DNA of 64,000 nucleotides from Syntrophales bacterium (GCA_963668175.1 OY764159.1:896001-960000), one strand, 5' to 3'. Shown: positions 5,133 to 55,351, counted from the stretch's first letter. Notes: generated by a model from the letters alone, not told the origin. Translations and numbers: made by a program.

Positions 5133-5732
5133 ATGGCGAAGAAAATAACGGAAGGCAAGAAGCCGGGAAGAAAAGTGATCATTCTTTTGGGGAGTCCGCG
5201 GAAGCGGGGAAACAGTACGATATTGGCGGAGCGGATTGCCAAGGGGGCTAAAGCCGCGGGAGGCCGTATCGAAACATTTTACCTCCACGGCATGGAGATC
5301 GCCCCCTGTAAATCATGCTACGTCTGCAAGAAGCCCGGAAGCAAGGGGTGCTCGATCCAGGACGACATGCAGATGCTCTACCGGAAGATGCTGGAAGCGG
5401 AAGCCTGGGTAATCGCCAGTCCGGTTTACTGGTTCAACATGTCGGCCCAAATCAAGATCTGGATGGATCGCTGTTTTGCCTTGTCCGCTTACGGATTGGA
5501 TTCATTTGAAGGCAAGCGTATCGCCATCGCGATGGCCTATGGCGGCGACGACCCGTTTGACTCGGGCTGCGTCAATGCGCTGCGGACCTTTCAGGATGCC
5601 TATGCCTATACAAAGGCTGAAATAGTCGGCATGGTGTACGGCAGCGCCATGAACGCCGGTGAGATTAAAATCAACCGGGACCTGCTTCACGAAGCCGAAG
5701 AACTCGGATACCGTTTGGCGGCCGGTGACTGA
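5133..5732 (+). CDS. Iron-sulfur flavoprotein / NADPH-dependent FMN reductase family
   Basis: GSPRKRGNST FMN-binding loop, CxxCxxC-x7-C cluster motif, SPVYWFN; GGAGG RBS. Confidence 0.88.
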   Translation: MAKKITEGKKPGRKVIILLGSPRKRGNSTILAERIAKGAKAAGGRIETFYLHGMEIAPCKSCYVCKKPGSKGCSIQDDMQMLYRKMLEAEAWVIASPVYWFNMSAQIKIWMDRCFALSAYGLDSFEGKRIAIAMAYGGDDPFDSGCVNALRTFQDAYAYTKAEIVGMVYGSAMNAGEIKINRDLLHEAEELGYRLAAGD

Positions 5733-5775
5733 ACGAAACGTCGCCGCGTCTTGAAAGACAGGGGAGTGAGCAAGT

Positions 5776-6693
5776 ATGCCGTCCGATATTAAGAAAGTTG
5801 CCGTGGTCGGGGCGGGCGCCCTGGGGGCGGCCTATGGAGGGCTGTTGTTCGATGCGGACAGGCAGGGCGTCGCCTTTGTCGCTGCCGGAGGGAGGCTTGA
5901 GCGTCTCCGCCGGGAAAGCCTGGTCGTCAACGACAGGAAGTACGAGATTCCGGTTCTGGGTTCCGACGATCCCTCGCCGCCGGCCGATCTTGTTCTTGTC
6001 GCCGTGAAGTATCACGATCTCGACGATGCCATCAGGGACATGAAGGGGAGGATCGGCAAGGAAACCGTCATCATGTCGGTCATGAACGGCATCGACAGCG
6101 AAGAGCGCATAGGCGCTGCATACGGAATGGAACATATGTTGTATGCCGTATCGGTCGGCATCGATGCCTTGCGGGTTGGAAACCGCGTTACATATACGAA
6201 CCAGGGGAAAATCTATTTTGGAGAAGCGGCCAATCCGCATGTCAGCGAGCGAGTCCGGAAGGTTCAGGCCCTGTTCGATAAAGCGGGGATCGTCTATGAA
6301 ACGCCCGCCGATATGCTGCATGTCCTCTGGTGGAAATACATGATCAACGTGGGCATCAATCAGGCTTCGGCCGTGCTGCGTGCCCCTTACGGCGTCTTTC
6401 AGACCTCGAAGGATGCCCGGGAACTGATGGCGGCCGCCATGAGAGAGGTCGTTGCTCTGGCGGAGAAGCTCCATATCGCGCTTTCGGAACAGGATATGGC
6501 CGATTTCGATCCGTTCCTTATGCGTCTGAGTCCTCAAGGCAAGACGTCGATGCTTCAGGACGTGGAGGCCGGCAGAAAAACGGAAGTGGAGATGTTGGCC
6601 GGCAAGGTCATCGACATGGGCCGGCGTATGGGTGTTTCGACCCCGGTCAACCAAATGCTGTACGATCAAATCAAGAAAATTGAAATGTCTTGA
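5776..6693 (+). CDS. panE: Ketopantoate reductase family (2-dehydropantoate 2-reductase)
   Basis: GAGALG Rossmann motif, VK, NG, WxKxxxN, SMLQD-x5-TEVE motifs. Confidence 0.85.
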   Translation: MPSDIKKVAVVGAGALGAAYGGLLFDADRQGVAFVAAGGRLERLRRESLVVNDRKYEIPVLGSDDPSPPADLVLVAVKYHDLDDAIRDMKGRIGKETVIMSVMNGIDSEERIGAAYGMEHMLYAVSVGIDALRVGNRVTYTNQGKIYFGEAANPHVSERVRKVQALFDKAGIVYETPADMLHVLWWKYMINVGINQASAVLRAPYGVFQTSKDARELMAAAMREVVALAEKLHIALSEQDMADFDPFLMRLSPQGKTSMLQDVEAGRKTEVEMLAGKVIDMGRRMGVSTPVNQMLYDQIKKIEMS

Positions 6694-6998
6694 ACGGAAA
6701 CCTCTCGAGATCAATCCGGCAGCCCGGCCCTCCGGGAGAGGGTCGCGGTGTTTCCAGGTACACCCCCGTTTCCTTTGCCGTATCCTTGCCTGAGGAACGT
6801 CGTCCGTTGAAACAGGAGGTGCTGCGAAGCAGTGATTCATCCAGTAACGCTTCGATATGCTCCGCCGGGTAAGAAGCCGACGGGTGAGGGCAGGCATATT
6901 CTAAAGTCCGAAGGGGGAAACGCATTTTTTTTAACAACCGATTGTTGGGGCGGAGATTCACGCTTGGCCCGCGCAAGAAATAACGGATGGAGGCGACA

Positions 6999-9014
6999 AT
7001 GAGCGAGGAAACATCGGTAAAAGGGGATTTCGTTCACCCGGTATTTGCCCTGATTCCGACACTGCAACTGAAGAAGGGGAAGATCGTTTCTGCGGAAGAG
7101 GCGGTGCGTATCATCAGGGACGGGGATACGGTGGCGACGGAGGGTTTTGTGGGAACCGCCTTTGCCGAGGAGATCGCCATGGCTCTGGAAGACTATTTCC
7201 TTAAGACCGGTTCTCCCCGGAACCTCACCATCGTCTATGCGGCGGGACAGGGGGACAGCAAAGAAAAGGGCCTGAATCACCTGGCTCATGAGGGATTGGT
7301 CGGCAGGGTCGTCGGCGGCCATATCGGTCTGGCCCCCAAGCTACAGACATTGATCCGGGAAAACAAGATTCTGGCCTACAATTGGCCGCAGGGCGTCATC
7401 TCCCATTTTTTCCGGGATGTCGCCGCCCGTCGCCCCGGCGTCATTTCCCGGGTCGGCCTGGGAACTTTTATCGATCCGCGGCATGACGGCGGTAAATTGA
7501 ACGAGAAGACCTTCAGGGAAGGGGAGGATCTCGTCAAACTCATGTCCATCGATGGGCAGGAATACCTCTTCTACAAGGCTTTTCCCATCAATGTCGCCAT
7601 CATCAGGGGGACGACGGCGGATACGGACGGCAATATCACGATGGAAAGAGAGGCCCTCACGATAGAATCGCTGGCCATGGCCATGGCGGCCAAGAACAGC
7701 GGCGGCTTTGTCATGGTCCAGGTCGAACGCATTGCGGAACGGGGGACGCTGAACTGCCGGGACGTGAAGATCCCGGGCGTCATGGTGGACTGCGTCGTCG
7801 TAGCCAAGCCGGTCAACCATTGGCAGACTTTTACAGTACAATACGACCCGTCCTTCAGCGGCGAGACGAAAGTGCCCATGACCTTTATTCCCCCGATGGA
7901 CATGGGGATGCGAAAGATCATCGCCCGGAGGGCCGCCTTCGAGCTCAGCCCCAACAGCGTTGTGAACCTGGGTATCGGCATGCCCGAGGGCGTGGCCAAC
8001 GTCGCCAATGAGGAAAAGGTGATCGAGTATCTGACGTTGACGACGGAGCCTGGCACGATCGGCGGCATGCCCAACGGGGGCCCGAATTTCGGGACGGCAA
8101 CAAATATGGAATGCCTGATCGACCAGCCTTACCAGTTCGATTTCTATGACGGCGGCGGACTGGATGCGGCCTTTCTCGGCTCGGCGGAGGTCGACGCCGA
8201 AGGCAACGTCAACGTCAGCAAGTTCGGGCCCAGGTTTGTCGGCCCCGGGGGATTCATCAATATCAGCCAGAATGCCAAGAAGGTCGTATTCATGGGAAGC
8301 TTCACGGCCGGGGGATTGAAGGTATCGACGCGGGACGGTAAACTGATCATCGACCAGGAGGGCCGGGAGAAGAAGTTCGTCAAGCAGGTCGAACAGAAGA
8401 CGTTCAGCGGTTACTATGCAGCACTGGATAAGAAGACCGTCTATTACGTAACGGAGCGCTGCGTCTTTTCGCTGACGGAGAAGGGCATGGAGTTGACCGA
8501 GATTGCCCCGGGCATGGACCTGGAAAAGGATATCCTTGCCCAGATGGAGTTTGAACCGATTGTGAACGGTTCTCCCAAATTGATGGACTCCAGGATCTTC
8601 TCGCCCGGTCTCATGGGGCTCAAAAATGAACTGCTCAGCATCCCGCTGGAGCATCGCCTGATCTACAATGCGGAGGAGAACAGCTTCTTTGTCAATTTCG
8701 AAAATCTGTATATCCGTTCCAGCCGCGAGATTCAGAAGATCAAGACCTTGATTGAGACGATGCTGTCGCCCCTCGGCAAAAAGGTCTATACGATCGTCAA
8801 CTACGACAACTTCAACATCCTGCCGGAACTGATGACTGAATATACCGACATGGTGAAGTACGTCATGCGGTTTTATGAGAGCACGACGCGTTACACGACA
8901 AGCGCCTTCCTGCGCATGAAACTGGGGGACGAATTGCAGAAGCGCGACCTTGCTCCCCATATTTACGAAACGAAGGAAGAGGCGCAGATATTCCTTCGCG
9001 AACAACAGGAATAA
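6999..9014 (+). CDS. Family I acyl-CoA:acetate CoA-transferase (propionate CoA-transferase/YdiF-like, fused) with C-terminal extra domain
   Basis: VGLGTFIDPR, NLGIGMPE, catalytic Glu (TTEPG), FDFYDGGGLD, GGFINISQ, YVTERCVF; GGAGG RBS before ATG 6999. Confidence 0.9.
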   Translation: MSEETSVKGDFVHPVFALIPTLQLKKGKIVSAEEAVRIIRDGDTVATEGFVGTAFAEEIAMALEDYFLKTGSPRNLTIVYAAGQGDSKEKGLNHLAHEGLVGRVVGGHIGLAPKLQTLIRENKILAYNWPQGVISHFFRDVAARRPGVISRVGLGTFIDPRHDGGKLNEKTFREGEDLVKLMSIDGQEYLFYKAFPINVAIIRGTTADTDGNITMEREALTIESLAMAMAAKNSGGFVMVQVERIAERGTLNCRDVKIPGVMVDCVVVAKPVNHWQTFTVQYDPSFSGETKVPMTFIPPMDMGMRKIIARRAAFELSPNSVVNLGIGMPEGVANVANEEKVIEYLTLTTEPGTIGGMPNGGPNFGTATNMECLIDQPYQFDFYDGGGLDAAFLGSAEVDAEGNVNVSKFGPRFVGPGGFINISQNAKKVVFMGSFTAGGLKVSTRDGKLIIDQEGREKKFVKQVEQKTFSGYYAALDKKTVYYVTERCVFSLTEKGMELTEIAPGMDLEKDILAQMEFEPIVNGSPKLMDSRIFSPGLMGLKNELLSIPLEHRLIYNAEENSFFVNFENLYIRSSREIQKIKTLIETMLSPLGKKVYTIVNYDNFNILPELMTEYTDMVKYVMRFYESTTRYTTSAFLRMKLGDELQKRDLAPHIYETKEEAQIFLREQQE

Positions 9015-9020
9015 CGCCCT

Positions 9021-10376
9021 TTAGCCGCTGAACTTTTCGATATACCGATCCATCCTGAACTTACGGCGGAGCCCCGCTTCGTTCATATACCGGACGGTTC
9101 CGAAGATGTTCCTCTCCCGCCACGGCCGGTCGTGCTTTCCGAAGCACCAGGATATGCCGGCGAAGCTGTTCGGATCGCGGCCGTCCAGGTTGTATTTATT
9201 GTTGAGGTAAATCATCCGCTCGTAGGCTTCTTCGGGCGACGGCGACCACTCGATGATCTTCTTCCCCCAGTACATGCGCAGGTAATTGTGCATCTTTCCC
9301 GTAAGAACCATCTCTCGCTGGGCCGCGTTCCAGCAGGCGTCGTGGGTTTCGCCCCCTTCGAGTTCGCTCATGGTGTATTGGTAAGGCCGCGGGTCGGCGG
9401 CATGTTTCTGCAGGGTCTGCCTCGCCCAGGCGGGCAGGGAATCGAACCGGTCGTAGAGATCGTTATAATGCGTAAAGTTGACGGCAAGCTCCCGCCGGAC
9501 AATCAGCTCTTCGAGATAGCCCTCTTGGGCCGCTTGCGGGATGCCCTCCGCCGACTTTATCTCCAGGGCGATAAAGAGGGGGGAAATCTGCCCGAAATGC
9601 AGATAGGGGCTCATATCCGAAGTACAGCCGGAGATCGGATCGTTATGCAGCTTCGGGTAGTCCGCCAGATGGCGGCCGATGAACTCGGCCAGATGTCTCT
9701 TGGCCCGTGAAGTTCCTCCTTCGTAACGAGTGACGAAGTTCACCGTGCGGTCTATCTTCGTAGGGCAGAGTATCGTCTTAATGCTCTGCCGGAGGGTGAC
9801 GCCCGCGATCTTGAGGGAAAGCGATTCGCGGCGGGCGGGCGTTTCCGGAAGCGAAACGAGAAATTCCGGAAGGCGGCATTTGATGTGGGGTCTGAGCACC
9901 GCAGCCGAATACGCTTCCCTGTCCAGGGCTTCCTCCACGGGCACGACGGTGTCCGTTTCCACTTCCGTCATGCGGCAGGGGGCATGGTCGGCAATGTTAC
10001 GACGCCAGTCCTTCTGAAGGCGGAGGTAACCCCGGTCGGCGACAATAGCCGCCGCCTCTGCGGCCATGAGCAGGACCTCCTGTTCGATAGCTCCCCGGCG
10101 GAGGATAAACTGGATGCCCCTCTTTTCCAGTGCGGCATACATTTCCTGCAGACCTTCCAGCATGAAGGTATAATGACGGAGATTGGCTTCGGGGAATTGA
10201 TCGGTCAGCACGAACAAAACGACAAGCGGCAGGTCCAGGTCGTTGGCCTGTCCGATGGCGAATTCAAGGGCATGGTTCCATTCGGCCCTTTGAGAGGCCT
10301 GCATCCAGTAAAGAACATAGCGGCCTTTACGGACGGCGAAACGGTTGAGAAGCTTGATTCTTTGCGGCTGGATCAT
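9021..10376 (-). CDS. phrB: Class II CPD photolyase
   Basis: YVLYWM, SPYLHFGQIS, EELIVRREL, GKMHNYLRMYWGKK, LDGRDPN, HDRPW motifs. Confidence 0.92.
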   Translation of the reverse strand: MIQPQRIKLLNRFAVRKGRYVLYWMQASQRAEWNHALEFAIGQANDLDLPLVVLFVLTDQFPEANLRHYTFMLEGLQEMYAALEKRGIQFILRRGAIEQEVLLMAAEAAAIVADRGYLRLQKDWRRNIADHAPCRMTEVETDTVVPVEEALDREAYSAAVLRPHIKCRLPEFLVSLPETPARRESLSLKIAGVTLRQSIKTILCPTKIDRTVNFVTRYEGGTSRAKRHLAEFIGRHLADYPKLHNDPISGCTSDMSPYLHFGQISPLFIALEIKSAEGIPQAAQEGYLEELIVRRELAVNFTHYNDLYDRFDSLPAWARQTLQKHAADPRPYQYTMSELEGGETHDACWNAAQREMVLTGKMHNYLRMYWGKKIIEWSPSPEEAYERMIYLNNKYNLDGRDPNSFAGISWCFGKHDRPWRERNIFGTVRYMNEAGLRRKFRMDRYIEKFSG

Positions 10377-10539
10377 AGGCAGACCTTTTCGGGTTTCCGA
10401 TCATCTCTCATTTCCGCAAATCGTGATGGCAGAACTATAGGGGCGGGAACGGGCCGTGTCAATGAAAACCTGCTCGAATTGCCGTTGTCCCCCGGGAGGA
10501 TGTGATGATATATTGAGGACAAAAAAGGGAAATACGGCC

Positions 10540-10875
10540 ATGAAAGACATCTTTCCAGAACCGATTACAAGACTTCCGGAGGCCGATATGCCTCTGAAGG
10601 GTGTTCGCGCCTATCTGTCGCAGGCTGACCGGCATCAGGTCATATTCATGCAGTTCGACTGCGACGACGAGATGGCGGAACATGCCCACGCCGCCCAGGT
10701 CGGATTCGTCCTGGAGGGGAGAATCGATCTCGTCATCGACGGGACCCTGCATACGTACCGCAAGGGCGACCGGTACTATATTCCTGAAGGTGTCCGTCAT
10801 TCCGGGAAGATCTATGCCGGATACGCCCAGGTAGCCTATTTCGACGCCCCCGACCGTTACGCGGTCAAAAAATGA
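10540..10875 (+). CDS. Cupin-domain protein
   Basis: HxH-x3-Q...EG motif and YIPEGVRH cupin motif 2. Confidence 0.82.
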   Translation: MKDIFPEPITRLPEADMPLKGVRAYLSQADRHQVIFMQFDCDDEMAEHAHAAQVGFVLEGRIDLVIDGTLHTYRKGDRYYIPEGVRHSGKIYAGYAQVAYFDAPDRYAVKK

Positions 10876-10945
10876 AACGGATATGAAGATGTCTCCGCGA
10901 CCGATGCCGGGCGTCGGTTGTTAAGACGGGTTCCTTCCGGCGCCG

Positions 10946-11893
10946 TCAGGGTATAGCGCCGAAAGAGTCCAGCGCTTTCCGGAACGACTTGAGATCCCCG
11001 ATCTCCATGACCTGGATGTACTTATCGATCTTCTTGATCAAGCCGGAGAGGGTTTTCTTCGGTCCGATTTCCAGGATGGTATCGATGCCCATGGACGCCA
11101 TCTTCTCGATGGTCTCCTGCCAGCGAACCGGCGAGATGATCTGCCGTCGCAGCAGGTCGCGGGCGTTTTCCGGCGTATATAAGGCGTCGGGATCGCAGTT
11201 GGGGATGACGGGAATCTGAAAATCTCCGAAGGTGATGCGGCTGAGATTCCCCGCCAGGGATTCCGATGCCGTCTGCAACAGCCGGCAGTGGCAGGGGACG
11301 CTGATGGGCAGTTTGATGACAATAGTCGACTTGATCTCCTTGGCGGCGGCCATGACCCTTTCCACCGCGGCCGTGTGGCCGGATATGGACATCTGCCTGG
11401 GGGCGTTGAGAACCGATACGGTGACAACCTCATCCTCTTTCGCGACTTCCCGGCAGATACGGCGGACCTCCTCATCATCCAGCCCGATGACGGCGGCCAT
11501 GGCGCCGCTTCCCACGGGGACGGCATCCTGGTGATATTGGGCGCGGGCGTAGACCAAAGGAAAAAGGTCGTCCAGGCCGATGGCCCCGGCAGCGTAAATG
11601 GCGCTGTATTCGCCGAGACTGTGTCCGGCGGCTACTTGGGGAGATATCTGCAGGAATTCCTTGCACAGGGTATAGACGGCAACTTCCAGGGTCAGGATCG
11701 TGGTCTGGGTGTTCACGGTCAAGTCCAGGGCTTCCTGCGGTCCTTCGAAGCAGAGGCGCGCCATATCGAAACCGAGGCTTGCCCCGGCCCTGTCGAATAT
11801 CTCCCGCACGGATTTGAACTCCGCGTAGAGATCCCTGCCCATGCCTGTAAACTGTGTACCCTGTCCCGGGAAGACCAAAGCGAGATTACCCAT
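10946..11893 (-). CDS. fabD: Malonyl-CoA:ACP transacylase
   Basis: VFPGQG, GHSLGE nucleophile, conserved Arg, PCH His, SPVRW, EIGP. Confidence 0.92.
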   Translation of the reverse strand: MGNLALVFPGQGTQFTGMGRDLYAEFKSVREIFDRAGASLGFDMARLCFEGPQEALDLTVNTQTTILTLEVAVYTLCKEFLQISPQVAAGHSLGEYSAIYAAGAIGLDDLFPLVYARAQYHQDAVPVGSGAMAAVIGLDDEEVRRICREVAKEDEVVTVSVLNAPRQMSISGHTAAVERVMAAAKEIKSTIVIKLPISVPCHCRLLQTASESLAGNLSRITFGDFQIPVIPNCDPDALYTPENARDLLRRQIISPVRWQETIEKMASMGIDTILEIGPKKTLSGLIKKIDKYIQVMEIGDLKSFRKALDSFGAIP

Positions 11894-12025
11894 GAATACC
11901 TCTGAAGATGATGTGCTGGTAGAGGAAGTACCCTTTTTTCTTCGCCCGGTCAACCGGAAATAGCGGGAAGCGCCCGTCTTCCATGGCCGCCGCCGTTTCC
12001 AGTACCGCGCGGGAAGGGAGGAGAT

Positions 12026-12769
12026 CTATATCCGATGGCCGCCATCCACCTCGATGACGCGGCCGTTCAAGAAGTCGCATTCGATGATGAATTTGACGGC
12101 CTGGGCGATCTCCGCCATCTCCCCGAAACGGCCCGCCGGAATATGGGCACATATTTCGTCGATGATCTTCTGGCCCATCTTCGCCGTCATTTCCGTCCGG
12201 ATGTATCCCGGGGCGATGGCCGCCGAGCGGATGCCGTACGGCGCCAGTTCCTTGGCCCAGGTGACCGTCATGGCGGCGACGCCGGCCTTCGTGGCGGAGT
12301 AGTTGGTCTGCCCGTAGTTGCCGGCCCGGCTGATGGACGAGATGTTGATGATTAGGCCCTTGACCCCATGCCTGGCCATCTGGGCCGCCGCTTCACGCCC
12401 GCAGAGAAAAACGCCCGTGAGATTGACCTGCAAGACCTTATCCCAACTGGACAAGGGGAATTTTCTCAGGATTTCGCCCTTTTTCCTGACAAAGACGGCA
12501 TCCGCCGTGATGCCGGCGTTGTTGATCAGGACATCGGGCGGACCGAATCGGGCCGTATAGTCGGCAAAGAAGGCTTCCACGTCCTTTTCGTTCGTGACAT
12601 CGACGACGGCCCCTTCGATGCCAGTTTCCCGCGCCAGGGCTTCAAGGTCTTCTTTAAGAATATCGATGGCATAAGGAAAGGCACCCAACTCCTTCAACTC
12701 CTTGCCGAACTGCTTCCCCATGCCTCTGGCTCCGCCGGTGATGACGATCCTTTTTCCCTTGATATCCAT
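12026..12769 (-). CDS. fabG: SDR 3-oxoacyl reductase (FabG/PhaB-like)
   Basis: TGGARGMG, NNAG, GQTNYSATK catalytic YxxxK, PGYIxT. Confidence 0.85.
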   Translation of the reverse strand: MDIKGKRIVITGGARGMGKQFGKELKELGAFPYAIDILKEDLEALARETGIEGAVVDVTNEKDVEAFFADYTARFGPPDVLINNAGITADAVFVRKKGEILRKFPLSSWDKVLQVNLTGVFLCGREAAAQMARHGVKGLIINISSISRAGNYGQTNYSATKAGVAAMTVTWAKELAPYGIRSAAIAPGYIRTEMTAKMGQKIIDEICAHIPAGRFGEMAEIAQAVKFIIECDFLNGRVIEVDGGHRI

Positions 12770-12805
12770 GTGAGGTGCTCCTCGGTGATGATGGTCCGCT
12801 TTCGT

Positions 12806-14503
12806 TTAAATTTCATTCACGTATAGGCCCGGCGCTTTTTCCAGGGGAGGATAGGTTTTTGATCCCAGGGAGGGCGGTCTGGTCATGGCATCGCCTCTGG
12901 AAAGAAGCCACTCGCGCCAATCCGTCCACCACGATCCCCGTTTCTCCGGCTGGGAGGACTGCCAGGCATCCGGCTCCAGATCGCTGTCGCGATCGACATC
13001 GCCTGCCCAGTACTTCCGACGCGAAATCTCGGACGGCGGATTGACGATGCCGGCGATATGGCCCTCACTGGCGAGAACGTACCGCACCGGACCGCCCACG
13101 AGGCTGCAGGTTCGGAATGCAGAGCGCCAGGGGCTGATGTGATCCTGCTGCGCTCCGACGGCATACAGGGGTTGTTCGATGCAACCCAGATCGATGGGGC
13201 AGTCGCCCAGGACGACGGCGTCCTTTTTCACGAGCTTGTTGTGTAAATACAGGTCCCGCAAATAGAAGGCGCACATGGCTTCCGGCATGCGCGTGCTGTC
13301 GTCGTTCCAGAAAAGCATGTCGGACTTCGGAGGCGTTCCTCCGTAGAGATAGTTGTGGACGTAATTTCGCCAGACGAGACTGTCCGACCGGAGGAGCCGG
13401 AATGTCTGGCTGATGTATCTCGAATCAAGATAGCCGTCTGTTTTCATAAGCGATTCGATGGCTTCGATTGCTTCCTCGCTGACAAAGACGCCGATGTCGC
13501 CCGGTTCGGAAAAATCCGTCAGCGTGGAAAAAAGGCTCCAGTCGGCTATCGGGACCGGTCCCGATTCCTTCCACATCCGGTTCAGCCATGCCATCAACGC
13601 GGCCAGAACCGTGCCGCCAATGCAGTACCCCGCCGCATGAACCTGGGGGGCTTTGCAGATTTCGCCGGCCACGAGAGCGGCCTGGAGGGCTCCCTTGAGC
13701 ATGTAGTCCGTGAATGTCGTGGCGCGCATGTCTGCGGTCGGATTTTTCCAGCTCGTGATAAAGACGTTGAATCCCTGACTGCGAAGATAATGAACAAAAC
13801 TATTTTGCGCGGTAAGGTCGAAAATGTAGAATTTGTTGATCCAGGGCTGGATTAGGACGATCGGTATTGCATACGTCTTTTCCGTAACCGGCGAGTACTG
13901 GATGACCTCCAGCAGACCGTTGCGATATACGACACGCCCGTCGGAGGTCGCGATATTTTCTCCTGGCTTGAAGGCTCTGTGGTCGACAATGGTGAGCAGG
14001 CTGTCGCCCCGAAGTCCATCGTCGATCCAGTTCATGAACCCCTGCAGGACGCTTGATCCGTCGGTATCGATGAAACGCTGGACGGCCCCGGGATTCGTCC
14101 AGAAGAAGTTGGACGGGGCGATGGCGTTCAGATACTGGCTGGACCAGAATCGGGCGCGACGCCTCTCGTCTTCCCGGAGGCCCGGGACGGTATCCACAAA
14201 ATCGCGCAGCCAACTGCTGAACACGGCATAGTAACGGCGTGTCAGGGACGCGTGATTTCTGATATGGCCCATGAAATGGTCTTCATCCTCCTCCTCCGGC
14301 TGTAAGGAGGAGGCGGAACCGGAACCCTGCGGCAGTTGGTGACGAAGAACTTCCAGGTTCAAATCTTCCAGGCGGGACATGAGGTCCGCCACTTTTTGCT
14401 TCAGTTCTTCCGAGTTCTGAAGCCAGGCGTCGCAAACTTTACGGAAGGAGGATGCCGCCCCGAACGGATCGACGATCTTTTCCAGAGGGTTCATAATCCC
14501 CAT
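12806..14503 (-). CDS. phaC: Polyhydroxyalkanoate synthase (single-subunit class I/II-like)
   Basis: PSNFFWTNP N-domain, PWINKFYIFDL, SWKNP, lipase box GYCIGG, DHI (Asp), GHIAG (His), SWW, APGxYV. Confidence 0.92.
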   Translation of the reverse strand: MGIMNPLEKIVDPFGAASSFRKVCDAWLQNSEELKQKVADLMSRLEDLNLEVLRHQLPQGSGSASSLQPEEEDEDHFMGHIRNHASLTRRYYAVFSSWLRDFVDTVPGLREDERRRARFWSSQYLNAIAPSNFFWTNPGAVQRFIDTDGSSVLQGFMNWIDDGLRGDSLLTIVDHRAFKPGENIATSDGRVVYRNGLLEVIQYSPVTEKTYAIPIVLIQPWINKFYIFDLTAQNSFVHYLRSQGFNVFITSWKNPTADMRATTFTDYMLKGALQAALVAGEICKAPQVHAAGYCIGGTVLAALMAWLNRMWKESGPVPIADWSLFSTLTDFSEPGDIGVFVSEEAIEAIESLMKTDGYLDSRYISQTFRLLRSDSLVWRNYVHNYLYGGTPPKSDMLFWNDDSTRMPEAMCAFYLRDLYLHNKLVKKDAVVLGDCPIDLGCIEQPLYAVGAQQDHISPWRSAFRTCSLVGGPVRYVLASEGHIAGIVNPPSEISRRKYWAGDVDRDSDLEPDAWQSSQPEKRGSWWTDWREWLLSRGDAMTRPPSLGSKTYPPLEKAPGLYVNEI

Positions 14504-14519
14504 CCTTGGCCTGAAGCCT

Positions 14520-14768
14520 TTAATGCTTGATGCTGTCGGGATTTTCGATGAAAGTGACTATCTCTCCTATGGTTGTTTCTTCGTTCAGAAGATCGAGGGG
14601 GACCTCGATCCCGAAAGTCTCTTTGAGGTAGGTCTGTAAATTAACTGCGGCGATGGAATCCCACTCGGGTATTTCGCTCAACATCGTTTCGGGGGTGACA
14701 TCGGCGGCACTCATTTCCGGGAAGATTTCCTGGATGCCGGTCATGATTTTTTTCAGCGTTTTGCTCAT
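14520..14768 (-). CDS. acpP: Acyl carrier protein
   Basis: 82 aa, acidic, WDSIA phosphopantetheine Ser, FGIEVP; GAGGAGG RBS. Confidence 0.88.
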   Translation of the reverse strand: MSKTLKKIMTGIQEIFPEMSAADVTPETMLSEIPEWDSIAAVNLQTYLKETFGIEVPLDLLNEETTIGEIVTFIENPDSIKH

Positions 14769-14798
14769 AGAGCCCTCCTCGTAGTCGCAGAGAATTAG

Positions 14799-15779
14799 TT
14801 ACAGCCGGATAAGATTCGCCCCCCAGGAAAGTCCCCCGCCGAACGCCACGGTCAAAACGAGATTGCCTTTCGCGATAACCCCGTCCGCAATGGCCTCATC
14901 GAGCGCAACCGGGATGGATGCACTGGCCGTGTTGCCATATTTGTGAAGATTTACGAAAAACCTTTCCACCGGCATGGCAATTTCTTCAGCAATTTTGTGG
15001 ATGATATTGATGTTGGCCTGGTGGCATATGAAGCAGTCGATGTCGTTTAAATCGATACCGGCCTCCCGGCATATCTGCCGGATGATTTCCGGACCCTTGT
15101 CGATCGTAAACGAGAAAACGTCGATGCCTTTCATCTTGAAAAAGGCAAGTCTGGGATTGGTCATCTTTTCAAAGGGAAGCATGGTGCCGCCTCCGGGAAC
15201 GCAAATGGTGTCGTGCCTGCCGCCGTCCGTTTTCAGGCAGGAGCGCAGGACACCTCGGCCGGATTCATTGCCGGCCCTGAACAGAACGGCCCCGGCGCCA
15301 TCGCCGAAATAGGGATAGGTGCTGTAATCTTTTTTATTCAGGATCTTTGAGTACATTTCGGCGGCAATAAAAAGGACGTTGTCGTGGTTGCCCGATTTAA
15401 TCATGGCATCGGCGAGGGCGATGCCGTATGAACTGCCCGAACAGACGGAGTTGATATCGAAGGCAAAGGCATTCCTGGCGCCGATAAGGTGTTGCACCCG
15501 GGTCGCCGTTGCCGGCTGCATGCGGTCCGGTGATGACGTGGATACCACAACGGCTTCCAGTTCTCCGGCGGGAAAATCGGCTTTCTTCAGGCAGGCGAAG
15601 GCCGCCTGGACGGCGAGATCGGAGGTACAGATATCCTCGGGCGAGTTCCTTCTGGACAAAACGCCCGTTTTTTCACGGATAAGCGCCTGCGCCTCAAGGG
15701 AAAACTGGGTTAGATCTTCGTTGTTGATTTCAAGTTCCGGCAGATAGCTTCCCGTCGCGCAAACAACTGTGCTTCTCAT
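14799..15779 (-). CDS. fabH: 3-oxoacyl-ACP synthase III
   Basis: GSYLP, catalytic Cys (CSG), FGDGAGA, HQAN, GNTASAS, FGGGLSWG; GGAGG RBS. Confidence 0.92.
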   Translation of the reverse strand: MRSTVVCATGSYLPELEINNEDLTQFSLEAQALIREKTGVLSRRNSPEDICTSDLAVQAAFACLKKADFPAGELEAVVVSTSSPDRMQPATATRVQHLIGARNAFAFDINSVCSGSSYGIALADAMIKSGNHDNVLFIAAEMYSKILNKKDYSTYPYFGDGAGAVLFRAGNESGRGVLRSCLKTDGGRHDTICVPGGGTMLPFEKMTNPRLAFFKMKGIDVFSFTIDKGPEIIRQICREAGIDLNDIDCFICHQANINIIHKIAEEIAMPVERFFVNLHKYGNTASASIPVALDEAIADGVIAKGNLVLTVAFGGGLSWGANLIRL

Positions 15780-15881
15780 GAGGGGGACCTCCGTGGGTTT
15801 GGATGGGTTGCTGACTGAAAGGTCCTTTGCTTCGACTTCGGTTTCTCCGGAAGAGACGGTTGAGATTGGGCGGCTGCAATT

Positions 15882-15949
15882 ATTATAAAGTGCGACAAAA
15901 TTTCAACATCCGTAAAGTTCTATTTAACCACATGACGGAAATCTGTCAA
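15882..15949 (-). promoter_or_regulatory. Candidate promoter elements for the fabH-acp-phaC-fabG-fabD cluster
   Basis: Minus-strand TTGACA (15944-15949) with a weak -10, and a separate perfect TATAAT (15882-15887), in an AT-rich intergenic region. Confidence 0.35.
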
Positions 15950-16248
15950 TACCTCTTTTGCCGATTCGTCTCCGATTTCAGGTTCAGCGAGTCGGAGCTT
16001 TCTTTTATGACCGAGAGGAATACGGACATGCGTCCGGGAAATTCTGCTTCCGTTTGACAGCCTTGGGTTAGTCTGGTATAGGCATAACGTAAAATGGCAA
16101 AAGGTGGGCGGTTCATGTACCTGCCACGTCTCCATGAGGAAATAAGTGGAGGACAGGACCTGAGAAAGGGATTTTCATGACATAACCCAGACAGAATCGA
16201 GATGGGTTATCATAAGTTGTGTTTCTTTTTTGGGAAAGGAGAACTTGT

Positions 16249-17208
16249 ATGCTTTTCGGTAAGTGTTTAAAAACCGGTGTTGTGCTGCTTGCCGTACTCT
16301 TTTTCAGCGCAGGCGTCCTGGAAATGGATGCCTACGCGAGGGCGGGGAGCGGAAGGTCAATGGGAAGCAGGGGGTCGCGGTCCTACAGCTCCCCCAGCCG
16401 CTCAATCACGCCTTCGCCGACCCAGCCGTCGCGCCAGGTGGCTCCACCGATGCAGCCGGCCCCGGCTCCTGCCCCGCGGCCCAGCATGTGGCGCAGTTTT
16501 GCCTACGGAGCCCTGGGCGGCATTGTCGGCGGTATGCTTTTCAGCGGCCTCAGTCACGGATTCGGCGGTGGCGGCGGTTTCGGAGGCAGCGGTATCGGCT
16601 TTATCGAGATTCTTTTGATTGGTCTGATCCTTTACGGACTCTATCGTATCTTCAGAAAGAAGAAGGAGGAGGAAGTCTACAGCGGAGGCTATGCCCGGAC
16701 AGGGACGGACCAGCCGGTCGGACAGCCGGCATATGGGGCTCAGGATCAGGGGTATCAAGACAATCAGGTCGATGCCGGCATCGGTTATATCCGGCAGATG
16801 GATCCTTCTTTTGACGAGGGACGCTTCACGGACCAGTGTACCGATCTCTTTTTCCGTGTCCAGGGGGCGTGGGCCAACAGGGACATGTCGACTGCCCGCA
16901 GCATCCTGACCGATGAGATGTACGGTATCCTGCAAGGCGAGGCCGACAAGCTCAAGGCGGAAAAGAAGTTCAACAAGCTGGACAACATCGCGGTCCGCAA
17001 CGTCGAGATTACGGAAGTGTGGCAGGAAGCGGGGAAGGATTTCATTACCGTCAAATACCTCGCCAACCTGGTGGATTATACGGTGAGCGAGTCGGGCGAC
17101 CTTTTGGAAGGCAGCAAGACCGACCCGGTCAAATTCGAAGAGTACTGGACTTATACAAGGCCGGTGGGGAATAATCCCTGGCAGCTTTCCGCCATCAACC
17201 AGCCTTGA
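16249..17208 (+). CDS. Tim44-like domain membrane protein
   Basis: Signal peptide, ARAGxGxSxGSRGSR, Gly-rich TM segment, DPSFD...F..VQxAW, FEEYWTY; AAGGAG RBS. Confidence 0.85.
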   Translation: MLFGKCLKTGVVLLAVLFFSAGVLEMDAYARAGSGRSMGSRGSRSYSSPSRSITPSPTQPSRQVAPPMQPAPAPAPRPSMWRSFAYGALGGIVGGMLFSGLSHGFGGGGGFGGSGIGFIEILLIGLILYGLYRIFRKKKEEEVYSGGYARTGTDQPVGQPAYGAQDQGYQDNQVDAGIGYIRQMDPSFDEGRFTDQCTDLFFRVQGAWANRDMSTARSILTDEMYGILQGEADKLKAEKKFNKLDNIAVRNVEITEVWQEAGKDFITVKYLANLVDYTVSESGDLLEGSKTDPVKFEEYWTYTRPVGNNPWQLSAINQP

Positions 17209-17234
17209 TATAAGACCATCATAGGAGATTCGAG

Positions 17235-17267
17235 AAGGGCGGCTCTACAGGCCGCCTTTCTTTTTTT
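17235..17267 (+). terminator. Rho-independent terminator
   Basis: AAGGGCGGC-loop-GCCGCCTTT followed by T run. Confidence 0.75.
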
Positions 17268-17545
17268 GCCGGCTTTGCCGGGGATGCGTTGCATCGTCCC
17301 CGCATTTCCGGATCGGACGTTCCGTAGATATCTCCCTGCCGCGGCTCTTATCGGCATCCGATTTAAGTTGAGGATTCCTGCACGGTGCATCTTTTGGGTT
17401 TTCTGTTCCTCCGCGTCTGATGATGGTCTTCTGTTCCCGCCCGTCATTGCCGTCGTCGCACAGCGCCTTCGGTAACGATCCAAGGCAATCTCCGGAGCGT
17501 TTCGTTTACGGCGCAGAAGACATGGGATACGGCGTTTCCGGCAAT

Positions 17546-28078: not shown

Positions 28079-28948
28079 TTAAATAATGGGTTTTTCAATG
28101 CTTACGAATATTTTTCCATTCTTAAAGACGGAGATGTTGCCCGTCGACTCGGAAAGGACCATGGCGATGGCGTTGGAGATGCTCGTTATACCGGCGGCGG
28201 CGATATGCCTGCTGCCCAGCCCCTGGGGAAAATCCTTGCTTTCCAGGGCGGCATTCAAGTGCCTGCCCGCCGTTACAATGGCCCCGTCTTCCTTGATGAC
28301 GAACGCCCCGTCGATGGCGGAGAATTCCTTGATGGTTTCCTTCAATTCCGGGTTGAGGATGTTGCGTTCCTGTTCCGTATACCCCATGAACGGATTGATG
28401 ATCATCTGCCGGGAGAGCTGCATGACCTTTTCATGGTCTCCAAGGACGAACGTCGTTCCGACCTTGCGCCCTTCCCGTCCCTGGGCGGCCAGCTCCAGAC
28501 TGATATTGAGAACGGCTCCGAACACCTCGGGATAGACGGCTTCCGTGATATCCGATATATTTTCGGACGTCAGGAATTCGAACTCTTTTCCCACATCGAG
28601 AATGAAAAGGCTGTCCACGTAGCCGAACCGGGGCACTCCGCTCAGACAGACCAGCTTGTCCCCTTTCTTGAAGAGGCCGATGGCGATTCCCTTGATGACG
28701 GCGGTCTTGATCTGTCCGATCCTGGTCAGGTTGACATTGGGAATATTCAGGACGGTCGCGGCCGATGCCAGATCAGCGGGAATCTCTTCGTTTTCCCGGG
28801 ATACGAGGACCAATTTGGTCTGATTGACGTCGCCCATGCACGTCGGCAGCTCCGACGCCAAACTTGAGTAGACCAGGATAGCGTTTGCCTGAATATCGCT
28901 CGCTATCCGGCACGCCGATTCCAGAATCACTTTGTTGATGGAACTCAT
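28079..28948 (-). CDS. Diadenylate cyclase, DacZ/CdaZ-like architecture
   Basis: DisA_N motifs DGA, GSRH, SES; GREG motif; N-terminal alpha/beta domain; no TM helices. Confidence 0.85.
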   Translation of the reverse strand: MSSINKVILESACRIASDIQANAILVYSSLASELPTCMGDVNQTKLVLVSRENEEIPADLASAATVLNIPNVNLTRIGQIKTAVIKGIAIGLFKKGDKLVCLSGVPRFGYVDSLFILDVGKEFEFLTSENISDITEAVYPEVFGAVLNISLELAAQGREGRKVGTTFVLGDHEKVMQLSRQMIINPFMGYTEQERNILNPELKETIKEFSAIDGAFVIKEDGAIVTAGRHLNAALESKDFPQGLGSRHIAAAGITSISNAIAMVLSESTGNISVFKNGKIFVSIEKPII

Positions 28949-30354: not shown

Positions 30355-31470
30355 TCAGTCCCGACCCTCCGGCAGGAATATCCGGCGCGCGATCTTTCCG
30401 GCAAGCGTCTCTTTTGTGTGCAGGGCCCCGTGGGGACAGACTTCGATACAGCAATAACAGCGGATGCAGCGGTCGTAATCGAAGAGGAGAGCGCCGCCGC
30501 CGGGCGTTACAGCATCGGCGGGACACATGTCCCAACACTTACCGCACATCCGGCAGAGAGGCGCGTCGACGACGGGCCTCTGAAGCAAATGGCGGCGGAG
30601 AAAGCCATGGGCCTGCCTGGGACCGAACATGGGCGAGGCCATGGCGGGGAGTTGAAAGTCGCGAATAACGGGCAGCATACCGTCGATCTCCGGTGGGGTT
30701 CCGATTAATCCCATCTGGTGCGCCGTCCGCATGGTCGGCATTTTCTCCGGTGCCAGCCCCAGCATCCGGCACACGGCGGCGTCAACGGAGAAGGCATCCG
30801 CCGAACCCATCAGGACCCCGATCTCCTTCGGCAGGCCCCTCTTTCCCGGGCCCTCGCCCTCCATGGCCAGGATACCGTCCAGGACCGTGAAGGCCGGTTC
30901 GATCTTCCGGCAGATCAGGACTAAAAGCCGGGCAAACATATCCCGGTCGATCCCGGCGCGCAGGTGCCACTCCGCTTTGCGGTTTCCCACGATGCAGCCG
31001 AACATGTTCTTGACGCCCAGAGTCATAAGCATCTGACTGTGGGTTTTCAGCTTGGGCAGATTGATGATCCAGTCGGCCCGGACGGCTTCTGCGGCCGCGT
31101 CGATAAGATCGAAGGGTTTGCCGACATCGAGTTTAACCGTATCGCGAAAGGCATGGCAACGGACGTCCATGTTATTGAGAGCTTCGGCAACGCCGCCCTC
31201 TTTCAGAATATTTTCAAAGGAGCCCATGGCTGGACTGTCCGCAACCGTCGTCCGGGCGCCCCTGTCAATGACGTACTCAACGGCGGCCTTGATCACCAAG
31301 GGATGCGTCAGTATGGCCTGAGAGGGTGTCGCCGCGATAAGGAAATTGGGTTTGATAAGGACATGATGGCCTTTCCCGATCCTGCCTCCGCCGATGGCGT
31401 CCATGATCTCGAAAAAGACGGGCCGCAATGTTTCATAGGCATACGATGCGTGCCTGACGATGACTTTCAT
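30355..31470 (-). CDS. DUF362 protein with C-terminal 2x[4Fe-4S] ferredoxin
   Basis: VLIKPN, THP, NLPKLKTH, KNMFG, MEGEGP; two CxxCxxCxxxCP motifs. Confidence 0.88.
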   Translation of the reverse strand: MKVIVRHASYAYETLRPVFFEIMDAIGGGRIGKGHHVLIKPNFLIAATPSQAILTHPLVIKAAVEYVIDRGARTTVADSPAMGSFENILKEGGVAEALNNMDVRCHAFRDTVKLDVGKPFDLIDAAAEAVRADWIINLPKLKTHSQMLMTLGVKNMFGCIVGNRKAEWHLRAGIDRDMFARLLVLICRKIEPAFTVLDGILAMEGEGPGKRGLPKEIGVLMGSADAFSVDAAVCRMLGLAPEKMPTMRTAHQMGLIGTPPEIDGMLPVIRDFQLPAMASPMFGPRQAHGFLRRHLLQRPVVDAPLCRMCGKCWDMCPADAVTPGGGALLFDYDRCIRCYCCIEVCPHGALHTKETLAGKIARRIFLPEGRD

Positions 31471-32441
31471 AGGCGGTCAAAGGCCTGAACGATGGTTTCT
31501 ACAAAGATTTCCCGGTGAAAAAGAAAGGCCCCGACATGGCCGCCCTCCAGCCAGCGCAGGCTGGAGCCGGGCCAATGCCGATGCAGTTTTGCGGCAGACT
31601 CCGGGGGGATGTACGCGTCGTTGCGGGCGGCGACAAGAACGGCCGCCGCAGGCGCCTGCGGCGGCGGGTAACGCCGGATATCCATGATGTTGAGCAGCTC
31701 CGTCATGAATTCCCTGGCCTCGTCCGGCCCTTCATGTTCATGATTCAGGGCATCCCAGGCGCAGTACCGGGAGAGTATCCCTTCGAGGAAGACGGCACTC
31801 GGCGAATGGGGCGCGATGCAGGGAGCGATAGCCACAGGTCCCGGCGACAACGCACCGACAAGGGCCGCCATATGCCCGCCCATGCTGATTCCGGAGACAC
31901 CCATCTTCGTATATCCTTCCCTACGTAGCCAGGCGAGAAGGGTGCTGCCTTCCGTCAGGGCGGCGCTTCCCATCAGGATGAGGTCGCTTACGCATCTCAG
32001 CATTTTACTGTGCTGTCCGGGCGGTCGCCGTTTTCCGTAGTACGGATTCTCCAGGATCAGGGAGCCGATGCCCCTTTTCGCAAGCGGCAAGGCCAGGGCC
32101 TTTCTTCTTCTCTCGAAGCCCTCGTCTCCCGTGGCGGCGAGGTGGAGGCAAACGGGAGGTCGGCCGTTCCCGTCGATCGGAAGGATCATCTCCACGTAAG
32201 CGGTGCCGCTTTCCGGCGGAAATCCTCTCGCTTCGAAGGGACTTGCGAACCGGCCCTGCCTGATCCTTATGCCGTCAGCCCTTTCTTCTCTATCCCACGA
32301 GATCGAAATCTTCGCCTGTGCCCGTTCCTGAAGCCAGTCGGGGCTTAGCGCCTTGAGAAAACCCATATCCCCCCAGCCTTGCCGGAAAAAGAGGGGCCGG
32401 TTCGAGTAACGGGCATACAATCTGTCAAGAAGGCTGCTCAT
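31467..32441 (-). CDS. Alpha/beta hydrolase, DUF2048/ABHD18-like
   Basis: FFxxGWG, HLAATGD, LENPYYGxRRP, GISMGG nucleophile, DAYIP, GGHV. Confidence 0.8.
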   Translation of the reverse strand: MSSLLDRLYARYSNRPLFFRQGWGDMGFLKALSPDWLQERAQAKISISWDREERADGIRIRQGRFASPFEARGFPPESGTAYVEMILPIDGNGRPPVCLHLAATGDEGFERRRKALALPLAKRGIGSLILENPYYGKRRPPGQHSKMLRCVSDLILMGSAALTEGSTLLAWLRREGYTKMGVSGISMGGHMAALVGALSPGPVAIAPCIAPHSPSAVFLEGILSRYCAWDALNHEHEGPDEAREFMTELLNIMDIRRYPPPQAPAAAVLVAARNDAYIPPESAAKLHRHWPGSSLRWLEGGHVGAFLFHREIFVETIVQAFDRL

Positions 32442-32657
32442 GTTTTCATCCGTCGCCGGCGGCATTTCTCTATTGAAGATGGGTGAGCGGTTGTTGAATG
32501 AGGGTATCCTCGGGAGGCCCGGAGATTGCCTGGGGTTGCCCGTTCTACCTGCATCGCAGCCTTAATGATAGGGCGAACGAACATCCCGCCCTGCATTTGG
32601 CCGCCGACACACTGGGCATGACGGGACGGGTCGCAAGGGGGTCGGAGTAAAGGCTCG

Positions 32658-49057: not shown

Positions 49058-49313
49058 TGAGAAATATCCTTCTTAACGTCTATCGCCACTCATTCCCTTC
49101 CTGTTTGGCTCGGCAGGATGCTATCCTTGCAACGGCTGTCACTGTTGGCTGAACCCCTTCCTCGACACAATGACCCCGCAGGATTCACTTTGGCGCTGCA
49201 CAATCATTCGCGGTCGGCGAACCTGAAAAAAGACTTGCATATCGATGCCTTTTTCTGCCATATCTCTCTATCCCTTTGAAATCTACTGCGTTTGGGTACT
49301 GAAAGGAATCATT

Positions 49314-55281: not shown

Positions 55282-55351
55282 GCATGTCCTTTCTTCAGCA
55301 CGGAAAATGAAAGCAGGATGAATCTTGGGGTTTTTGCAGATTGAACTTCGT

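Follow-up and report, generated by a model that had tools for sequence, protein, structure and literature searches.

Polyhydroxyalkanoate (PHA) synthases receive their monomers by three textbook routes, namely via thiolase and PhaB, via beta-oxidation and PhaJ, and via fatty acid synthesis (FAS) and PhaG, all of which end in coenzyme A (CoA) esters. Here, we analysed a 64,000-nt stretch of the genome of a Syntrophales bacterium (OY764159.1:896001-960000; hereafter, the window), in which a PHA synthase gene (phaC) lies in an operon with genes for a FabH-type 3-ketoacyl-acyl carrier protein synthase (KAS III), an acyl carrier protein (ACP), a FabG-type short-chain dehydrogenase/reductase (SDR), and the malonyl-CoA:ACP transacylase FabD. 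As judged from its sequence, the operon most likely provides a dedicated ACP-based system for the monomer supply and polymerisation of PHA in Syntrophales-like Desulfobacterota. To these three routes of monomer supply, a conserved operon in which PhaC is paired with its own ACP and KAS III would add a fourth, whose first step would be made irreversible by decarboxylation and which would be insulated from beta-oxidation and bulk lipid synthesis. Such a route would be relevant to carbon storage or the disposal of reducing power by energy-limited syntrophs in digesters and sediments.

The canonical phaCAB system of Cupriavidus necator resembles the operon in combining a single-subunit PhaC of approximately 565 aa, with a PhaC_N domain and a Cys-Asp-His triad, with an NAD(P)H-dependent SDR that makes the (R)-3-hydroxy monomer, and a short-chain polyester is expected in both cases. 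The two differ in the origin of the monomer. The canonical system uses a PhaA-type thiolase acting on CoA-borne substrates, whereas no thiolase was found among 57 scanned open reading frames (ORFs) of the window or in the flanks of the two related loci described below (L001 and L002), and the carbon-carbon bond is predicted to be formed by decarboxylative condensation, by KAS III with malonyl-ACP, on a private ACP. The PhaC of the window also differs from the canonical enzyme in scoring under the class I cut-off and in having neither the Phe that corresponds to F420 nor the Ser that precedes the catalytic His. The PhaG route of Pseudomonas, which serves a class II PhaC, likewise takes its monomers from the (R)-3-hydroxyacyl-ACP of a type II FAS; the role of PhaG has been re-examined in a preprint (bioRxiv 10.64898/2025.12.18.695248). 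In that route, intermediates are drawn from the housekeeping FAS and AcpP and turned into CoA esters by PhaG and a CoA ligase, whereas the operon encodes its own ACP and KAS III together with a class-I-like PhaC, and neither PhaG nor a ligase is encoded at the loci.

Minimal type II polyketide synthase (PKS)/FAS initiation modules also combine a KAS III and a malonyl transferase of their own with a private ACP, which insulates them from primary FAS; the operon, by contrast, lacks genes for a cyclase and a thioesterase as well as for an elongating ketosynthase or chain-length factor, and its off-loading enzyme is a PHA synthase. Thiolase-free PHA synthesis has been engineered in Escherichia coli with fabH or fabD and phaC, and the yields of these strains are low. 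The over-expression of fabH or fabD with phaC, yielding polyhydroxybutyrate (PHB), is known from a title cited in PMC11539682, and fabH mutants co-expressed with phaC gave copolymers according to PMC3896788. The engineered strains (also with fabG) and the operon share the KAS III, FabD, FabG, and PhaC families; the strains differ in being artificial and in drawing on the AcpP of the host and on transacylase side activities that are weak, whereas the window contains a natural, conserved operon with its own ACP and a co-evolved PhaC clade. The engineered NphT7 route (PMC11539682) similarly replaces the thiolase with the irreversible decarboxylative condensation of a KAS III-family enzyme; it uses CoA esters throughout and does not require ACP and FabD, whereas both are encoded in the operon.

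A search of the full-text literature, in which most subscription journals were not covered, found neither a natural fabH-acp-phaC cluster nor an ACP-dependent PHA synthase described in print; the nearest published systems were the engineered strains combining FabH, FabD, or FabG with PhaC, the engineered NphT7 route, and the PhaG route of Pseudomonas. An earlier first-pass annotation of the window had known of no natural system described with this arrangement, which agrees with this search; the route itself, however, has an engineered precedent in E. coli. Each of the enzyme families is known, and what is new is the conserved natural operon joining PhaC and its supply enzymes through a private ACP, together with a co-varying PhaC subclass.

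Gene order in the operon and in related loci

ORF calling and profile searches placed five co-oriented ORFs on the minus strand (15779-10946, in the window coordinates used throughout) in the order fabH-acp-phaC-fabG-type SDR-fabD (Table 1). The intergenic gaps were exactly 30 nt between KAS III and ACP, 16 nt between ACP and PhaC, and 36 nt between PhaC and the SDR. The gap between the SDR and FabD was 132 nt when counted from the ATG at 11893, which gives FabD a family-typical N-terminus, and 72 nt when counted from the TTG at 11953, the start of the longest ORF. The five genes, motifs, and spacings listed in the first-pass annotation were borne out by the ORFs, profile scores, and translations, its 132-nt gap being that of the ATG start. 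Sequence inspection also revealed Shine-Dalgarno-like motifs before four of the five genes. The Pfam scans covered 57 ORFs of the window (5 + 28 + 24), those outside the cluster being at least 100 aa and nearly all at least 130 aa long; as had been claimed, none of the 57 encoded a thiolase, phasin, PhaR, PHA depolymerase (PhaZ), FabF/FabB, dehydratase, or enoyl reductase, although a small phasin could escape such a scan.

The best 120 relatives of the window PhaC (49-96% identity) belonged to Syntrophales, Syntrophus, Syntrophobacteraceae, Desulfococcaceae, and Desulfobacterales, with a few generic Pseudomonadota or Thermodesulfobacteriota labels. A locus scan with one genome per species yielded at least 80 PhaC loci, mostly from Proteobacteria, whose layouts were determined by tblastn with the window proteins and subsequent Pfam annotation. 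Among the loci listed, two belonged to the same clade as the window PhaC, one from Syntrophaceae (L001; 57% identity) and one from Syntrophobacteraceae (L002; 50%), and the other 78 contained proteobacterial or other PhaCs of 35-49% identity. The order fabH-acp-phaC was present in all three clade loci, in three unrelated flanking contexts. The operon of the window lies between a Tim44-like gene and a cupin gene. In L001, KAS III-ACP-PhaC-FabD is flanked by MTHFR and rpsF, with no SDR at the position after PhaC, and in L002 KAS III-ACP-PhaC-SDR is flanked by MucR and isocitrate lyase on a 9.8-kb contig, on which there was no FabD. A FabH or FabD homolog was found in the flanks of none of the other 78 listed loci. 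The order fabH-acp-phaC is thus kept in both of the other clade loci, which come from different families and have different flanks, and the first ground for refutation named in the first-pass annotation, a lack of conservation elsewhere, is answered in favour of that annotation. The suggestion that the genes form a complete minimal assembly line describes the window, which has all five, and does not extend to a definition of the family, since, in the DNA covered, L001 has no SDR and L002 no FabD. On the gene order of these loci, the conserved core is fabH-acp-phaC, three genes rather than five, and the functions of the SDR and FabD can evidently be supplied in trans, because each is missing from one of the three loci.

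In a quick IQ-TREE phylogeny (LG+G4) of 106 PhaC sequences, the PhaCs of the window, L001, and L002 fell into a clade of 26 rows (SH-aLRT 100; branch length 0.42), and the nearest outgroups were a Rhodocyclales PhaC group, the PhaC of L003, and the pair P0107/P0118. The three loci straddle the deepest split of the clade, so the linkage of fabH, acp, and phaC is most simply ancestral to it; their flanking contexts share nothing, which suggests that the module persists, or moves, as a unit. Co-occurrence was further assessed by taking the longest contig of each row among the best 120 PhaC rows and the best 120 FabH rows and matching the contig sizes to the base. Sixteen PhaC/FabH row pairs lay on contigs identical in length, where approximately 0.75 would be expected by chance, as estimated from 150 near-miss pairs differing by 1-100 bp (an approximately 20-fold excess). 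Eight of the matched contigs were 3,017-8,131 bp long, so that the PhaC and KAS III genes must adjoin; seven were 25-271 kb, including one pair named Syntrophus sp. SKADARSKE-3 in both tables; and the last, of 1,785 bp, was too short for both genes and represents a chance match. The matches indirectly extend the fabH-phaC linkage to approximately 15 more contigs. Taken with the gene order, they indicate that the fabH-acp-phaC arrangement is not a product of chance.

Two further observations were made at these loci. In L002, the module is followed directly by the glyoxylate shunt genes for isocitrate lyase and malate synthase, which have the opposite orientation. At four loci of the Rhodocyclales sister group, a gene for a beta-CASP/RMMBL metallo-beta-lactamase (RNase-J-like; 469-488 aa) immediately precedes PhaC, a conserved pairing, and in two of them (L049 and L061) a protein with an MCP-signal domain and an ODP-family di-iron protein are encoded 3' of PhaC.

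Supply enzymes, carrier protein, and PhaC signature

The KAS III matched PF08545 and PF08541 (E 8.5e-34) and cleared NF006829 (321.2 bits vs. a cut-off of 249), and its score on TIGR00747 was slightly under the cut-off (281.4 vs. 292.1 bits). Its closest PDB structure was the FabH 4dfe (E 1.4e-64), and alignment to this structure showed an intact triad of Cys (NSVCSG), His (CHQAN), and Asn (GNTAS). Its identity to the proteins encoded at the corresponding position of L001 and L002 was 65 and 61%, respectively, and among the best 120 rows the enzyme belonged to a clade of its own (62-90% identity) in Syntrophales and Desulfococcaceae. An assignment as OleA was rejected, as OleA structures matched weakly (E ~1e-10 vs. 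1e-64 for FabH); the Ole (olefin/beta-lactone) pathway was also rejected, there being no OleC-type gene and the hydrolase-fold protein being PhaC. We infer only from the co-operonic ACP and FabD genes that the extender unit of this KAS III would be malonyl-ACP rather than malonyl-CoA.

The SDR cleared the subfamily model NF006072 and remained under the cut-offs of the equivalog models for FabG (TIGR01830, 204.5 vs. 297.75 bits) and PhaB-type reductases (TIGR01829, 164.9 vs. 302.1 bits; NF042966, 151.8 vs. 436 bits). The SDR encoded 3' of PhaC in L002 also scored best on the NF006072-type subfamily (216.6 bits) and shared 36% identity with that of the window. FabD scored 297.4 bits on TIGR00128 (cut-off 260.9) and contained the motif GHSLGEY, and its ortholog directly 3' of PhaC in L001 (54% identity) reached 306.3 bits on the same model.

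The ACP contains Ser38 in an EWDS motif and has 15 acidic and 5 basic residues. It scored at most 29 bits on every NCBIfam ACP model (cut-offs 65 to 146), and among the AcpP models the best score was 28.9 bits vs. a cut-off of 84 (NF002147), with 24.1 vs. 70.45 bits on TIGR00517. Because of these low scores, the protein is regarded as a private carrier and not as the housekeeping AcpP. Among 1.84 billion representative proteins, 110 relatives (E<=1e-3) were found, 22 of them with E<=1e-10, and almost all were stand-alone proteins of 74-92 aa; an alignment of 24 sequences showed positions P34, D37, and S38 to be near-invariant. The closest Atlas clusters consisted of Thermodesulfobacteriota ACPs (101 and 105 members). 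By these profile and homology searches, the ACP is a member of a narrow, private carrier family distinct from AcpP. In L002, the stop codon of the ACP gene shares 1 nt with the start codon of phaC.

The window PhaC has a PF07167 domain at residues 87-240 (164 bits; cut-off 23.7), and residues 41-562 align with 9knj, the structure of a full-length PHA synthase (E 1.2e-100), in keeping with a single polypeptide whose N-terminal PhaC domain precedes an alpha/beta-hydrolase catalytic domain. The catalytic residues C294 (GYCIGG), D454, and H482 did not vary in a set of 26 sequences or in the 115 clade sequences. The protein scored 526.3 bits on the class I model TIGR01838 (cut-off 622.65), 368.8 bits on the class II model (855.4), and 102 bits on the class III model (365.3), and the neighbouring genes in the window, L001, and L002 included none for a PhaE or PhaR partner subunit. 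By its profile scores and phylogeny, the PhaC clade is a distinct subclass, class-I-like and under the class I trusted cut-off.

The comparison of 115 clade PhaCs with 11 sister and 67 other PhaCs (window numbering) revealed a signature of this subclass. Position 394 is Ser in all 115 clade sequences and Phe in 76 of the 78 sister and other sequences, position 393 is Lys or Arg (113/115) vs. Pro or Ala (77/78), and position 480, two residues before the catalytic His, is Glu or Asp (115/115) vs. Ser (78/78). Position 457 is invariably Cys or Ser in the clade and mostly Ala outside it, and position 379 is Arg in 108 of 115 vs. Ser or His. At position 484, Thr prevails in the clade (98/115; Ala in the window), with Ala in all 67 other PhaCs and mostly Leu in the sister group. 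Since P0107 and P0118, which fall outside the clade in the tree, bear the classical residues, the signature coincides with the clade.

The residues were mapped onto the PhaC of Chromobacterium sp. USM2 (PhaC_Cs) through the alignment from the 9knj search and with the help of PMC5509742 and PMC7214940. According to the former, positions 393 and 394 correspond to Pro386 and Phe387 of PhaC_Cs, in the dimer 'contact area I' beside the LID, and Phe387 corresponds to F420 of C. necator, for which the laboratory substitution F420S raised the specific activity and shortened the lag (PMC5509742). In the same source, position 480 corresponds to Ser475, position 484 to Ala479 (A479T; Ala510 in C. necator), a known specificity site, and position 379 follows the contact-area-I Trp at the start of the mobile LID segment (PMC5509742). 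In the CoA complex of PhaC_Cs (PMC7214940), the adenine is held by Met225 and Pro229, the ribose is covered by Ile177, and the pantetheine arm is bound by the main chain of Leu379-Gly381. The clade keeps this pantetheine loop (L386-x-G388) and replaces Met225 with Phe in 92 of 115 sequences (F228 in the window). Positions 231 and 233 by the adenine loop, which are basic in classical PhaCs (Arg in 44/67 and Lys in 42/67, respectively), are Thr/Ser and Glu/Gln in the clade, and R379 and K/R393 are new basic residues in the LID/contact-area-I segment. These substitutions suggest that the carrier entrance and LID were remodelled in the clade, which is compatible with, and no proof of, a different carrier. 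With a wild-type Ser at the position of the laboratory-evolved F420S, the clade offers an attractive enzyme to characterise.

Proposed pathway and alternative readings

From the chemistry of the enzyme families, the operon would act in four steps. FabD would move malonate from malonyl-CoA onto the private ACP. KAS III would then join a short acyl-CoA primer, in the simplest case acetyl-CoA, to malonyl-ACP, giving 3-ketoacyl-ACP in a decarboxylative and irreversible reaction that would stand in for the unfavourable thiolase reaction, and the FabG-type SDR would yield (R)-3-hydroxyacyl-ACP. The private ACP would shield this intermediate from the housekeeping dehydratase and elongating synthases, and finally the divergent PhaC would polymerise the 3-hydroxyacyl group taken straight off the phosphopantetheine arm of the ACP. 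We consider it probable that the first three steps feed this PhaC, whatever the hand-off. The full chain, including direct transfer from ACP to PhaC, is put forward tentatively, at somewhat below an even chance, the fourth step being the weakly inferred one. Direct use of the ACP thioester is favoured because the adjacency of the ACP and PhaC genes is invariant, the carrier entrance appears remodelled, and no thioesterase, acyl-CoA ligase, or PhaG-like gene is encoded at the window locus, L001, or L002 (operon and immediate flanks). The PhaC clade could then be the first natural carrier-protein-dependent polyester synthase, working without a hydroxyacyl-CoA intermediate, and its signature (K/R393, S394, R379, E/D480, and the lost basic residues by the adenine pocket) could be an adaptation to ACP docking, a possibility that we hold with reserve. 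If PhaC does take its substrate from ACP, the assumed requirement of PHA synthases for the CoA nucleotide would be overturned, and the ACP-fed system, with its three to five genes, would be a compact tool for engineering polyester production without a thiolase.

Several points weigh against this pathway. Malonyl-CoA costs ATP and is expensive for energy-limited syntrophs. Direct synteny comprises three loci, the extension to further contigs is indirect, and the SDR and FabD each occur at two of the three loci. The carrier substrate of the SDR, ACP or CoA, is not assignable from sequence, and none of the 110 ACP matches among the representative proteins was an ACP-PhaC fusion. PhaC keeps a hydrophobic adenine pocket (F228) compatible with CoA use. 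The LID changes lie in the dimer contact, and F420S is more active on a CoA substrate, so that the signature may concern activation rather than the choice of carrier.

In the strongest of the alternatives, the same supply module would operate, KAS III or FabD would transacylate the (R)-3-hydroxyacyl group to CoA, and PhaC would use the CoA thioester. To our knowledge, every characterised PHA synthase works on CoA esters, and the window PhaC has kept the pantetheine loop along with the adenine pocket. Insulation by an ACP would be needed here too, and the presence of the ACP therefore does not discriminate between this detour and direct transfer. Nevertheless, the acyl-ACP:CoA transacylase side activities of KAS III and FabD are weak, no dedicated transacylase, thioesterase, or ligase is encoded at any of the three loci, and the detour offers no obvious reason for a clade-specific remodelling of the carrier entrance. 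That such side activities exist is implied by the PHB made in E. coli engineered with fabH or fabD and phaC (title cited in PMC11539682; PMC3896788). Overall, we regard a hand-off through CoA as conceivable and rather doubtful.

A different product is envisaged if the PhaC-family enzyme serves as an ester-forming off-loader that releases short oligo(3-hydroxyacyl) esters, or that makes an oligomer bound to ACP or protein, a lipid, or a secondary metabolite. The private ACP would then be an assembly scaffold as in type II PKS, and the product would not be a storage granule. A private ACP with a KAS III and an acyltransferase is the typical layout of a small type II natural-product module, no phasin, PhaR, or depolymerase was found in the scans of the window, L001, and L002, and the PhaC is altered in its LID and dimer contact besides falling short of the class I trusted cut-off. 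However, known producers often carry their phasin and regulator genes apart from phaC, and the module lies amid housekeeping genes in three contexts that have no tailoring or export genes in common; both this kind of product and the scaffold role of the ACP therefore seem unlikely to us.

The intact Cys-His-Asn triad of the KAS III, its score on NF006829, and its best solved relatives, which are genuine FabH enzymes, also speak against the idea that it acts as a loader, transferring beta-oxidation-derived 3-ketoacyl or 3-hydroxyacyl groups between CoA and the private ACP with no malonyl extender. FabH enzymes do possess acyl-CoA:ACP transacylase activity, the hosts come from lineages of fatty-acid and aromatic-acid degrading syntrophs, and there is no FabD on the L002 contig. 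Against this, FabD is in the operon at two of the three loci, and a housekeeping FabD could serve the third; with a triad and family scores of condensing enzymes, the loader role appears quite improbable.

Still less probable is a purely CoA-based route, in which the KAS III would be an NphT7-like acetoacetyl-CoA synthase using malonyl-CoA, the SDR would be PhaB-like, the PhaC conventional, and the ACP and FabD unrelated. The engineered malonyl-CoA-dependent NphT7 route to PHB works, according to PMC11539682, and the score of the SDR on the acetoacetyl-CoA reductase model (165 bits) is near that on the FabG equivalog (204 bits), both under the cut-offs. Such a route is disfavoured because the KAS III shares its operon with an ACP and FabD: the ACP gene lies between those of KAS III and PhaC in 3/3 loci, FabD is co-operonic in 2/3, and the families that the KAS III matches best are ACP-dependent FabHs. 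Finally, the placement of housekeeping fab genes beside phaC by accident, for which the housekeeping surroundings and a GC content of 0.54-0.58, the same as in the surrounding DNA, could be cited, is already disfavoured and barely credible, given an order kept in three families with different flanks, the excess of shared PhaC/FabH contigs, an ACP far from the AcpP models, and the absence of fabF, fabZ, fabI, and plsX from the cluster in the scans of the window, L001, and L002; the reading of the locus as a housekeeping fab cluster was likewise rejected.

Other features of the locus and the window

Upstream of the KAS III gene, a sigma-70-like promoter candidate matches the consensus at 10 of 12 positions; the evidence for it is weak, since such sites are barely enriched in the region (5 vs. 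3.3 +/- 1.7 in shuffles). No conserved element common to the upstream regions of the window, L001, and L002 was found, no Rfam match was obtained in 10300-17300 at E<=0.1, and no convincing terminator was present 3' of fabD. The neighbouring genes of the window are ordinary chromosomal ones, encoding H+-pyrophosphatase, Pth, L25, PRPP synthase, ClpB, DnaK, UvrB, and NrdD. The UvrB shares 77-78% identity with proteins labelled Syntrophales bacterium or Deltaproteobacteria bacterium, and 88-96% with its closest matches, in agreement with an uncultured, Syntrophales-like host from the Desulfobacterota/Thermodesulfobacteriota. The Tim44-like gene is divergent from the promoter region of the operon and has no counterpart beside the module in L001 or L002. 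A fused family-I CoA-transferase resembling FadX is encoded at a distance of two genes from the operon, and a 53%-identical homolog occurs in Granulosicoccus (L030), approximately 3 kb from an unrelated PhaC. This CoA-transferase was considered as a link between ACP and CoA and rejected, since it is encoded on the opposite strand at that distance and neither L001 nor L002 has it.

Table 1. Positions of the operon genes and of other features in the window, and of selected genes in other loci (numbering of the named locus).
Feature	Position	Strand	Description
FabH-type KAS III	14799..15779	-	326 aa; first operon gene; PF08545, PF08541, NF006829
Private ACP	14520..14768	-	82 aa; PF00550 31.3 bits, cut-off 20.8
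PhaC, divergent class-I-like	12806..14503	-	565 aa; PF07167 E 2.6e-48, TIGR01838 E 7.4e-158
Codon of PhaC residue 394	~13322-13324	-	
FabG-type SDR 3-ketoacyl reductase	12026..12769	-	247 aa; NF006072 309.8 bits, cut-off 298
FabD malonyl-CoA:ACP transacylase	10946..11893	-	315 aa from ATG 11893; TIGR00128
FabD, longest ORF	10946..11953	-	335 aa from TTG 11953
Sigma-70-like promoter candidate	15879..15906	-	TTGAAA, 16-nt spacer, AATAAT; upstream of KAS III gene
Tim44-like protein	16219-17208	+	PF04280, E 1.7e-39
FadX-like fused family-I CoA-transferase	6987-9014	+	675 aa; 436 bits, cut-off 750
DacZ-type diadenylate cyclase	28079-28948	-	DAC and DacZ_P sensor domain
ABHD18-family alpha/beta hydrolase with adjacent DUF362 protein	30355-32465	-	hydrolase: PF09752, E 8e-89
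Glutamine-amidotransferase/SIS protein	36025-39768	-	1247 aa; domains at residues 337-742
Antisense ORF	5671-6897	-	no Pfam match
Antisense ORF	7341-9005	-	no Pfam match
Antisense ORF	49185-50810	-	no Pfam match
Antisense ORF	53533-55344	+	no Pfam match
Isocitrate lyase and malate synthase, L002	5727-8802	-	downstream of module
CoA-transferase homolog, L030	2052-3962		Granulosicoccus
Beta-CASP gene upstream of PhaC, L005	5402-6811		
Beta-CASP gene upstream of PhaC, L049	5458-6924		
Beta-CASP gene upstream of PhaC, L061	5405-6871		
Beta-CASP gene upstream of PhaC, L076	5394-6860		

Elsewhere in the window, the gene of the ABHD18-family hydrolase overlaps by 4 nt that of a DUF362 protein with two 4Fe-4S motifs, which is an odd pairing. 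The 1247-aa protein with glutamine-amidotransferase and SIS domains has long termini without a Pfam match. A DacZ-type diadenylate cyclase is encoded in this bacterial window, and cyclases of this type have been described mainly from archaea. Four antisense ORFs of 408-603 aa, opposing PanE, the CoA-transferase, a ComM/Mg-chelatase-like gene, and UvrB, are most likely shadow ORFs.

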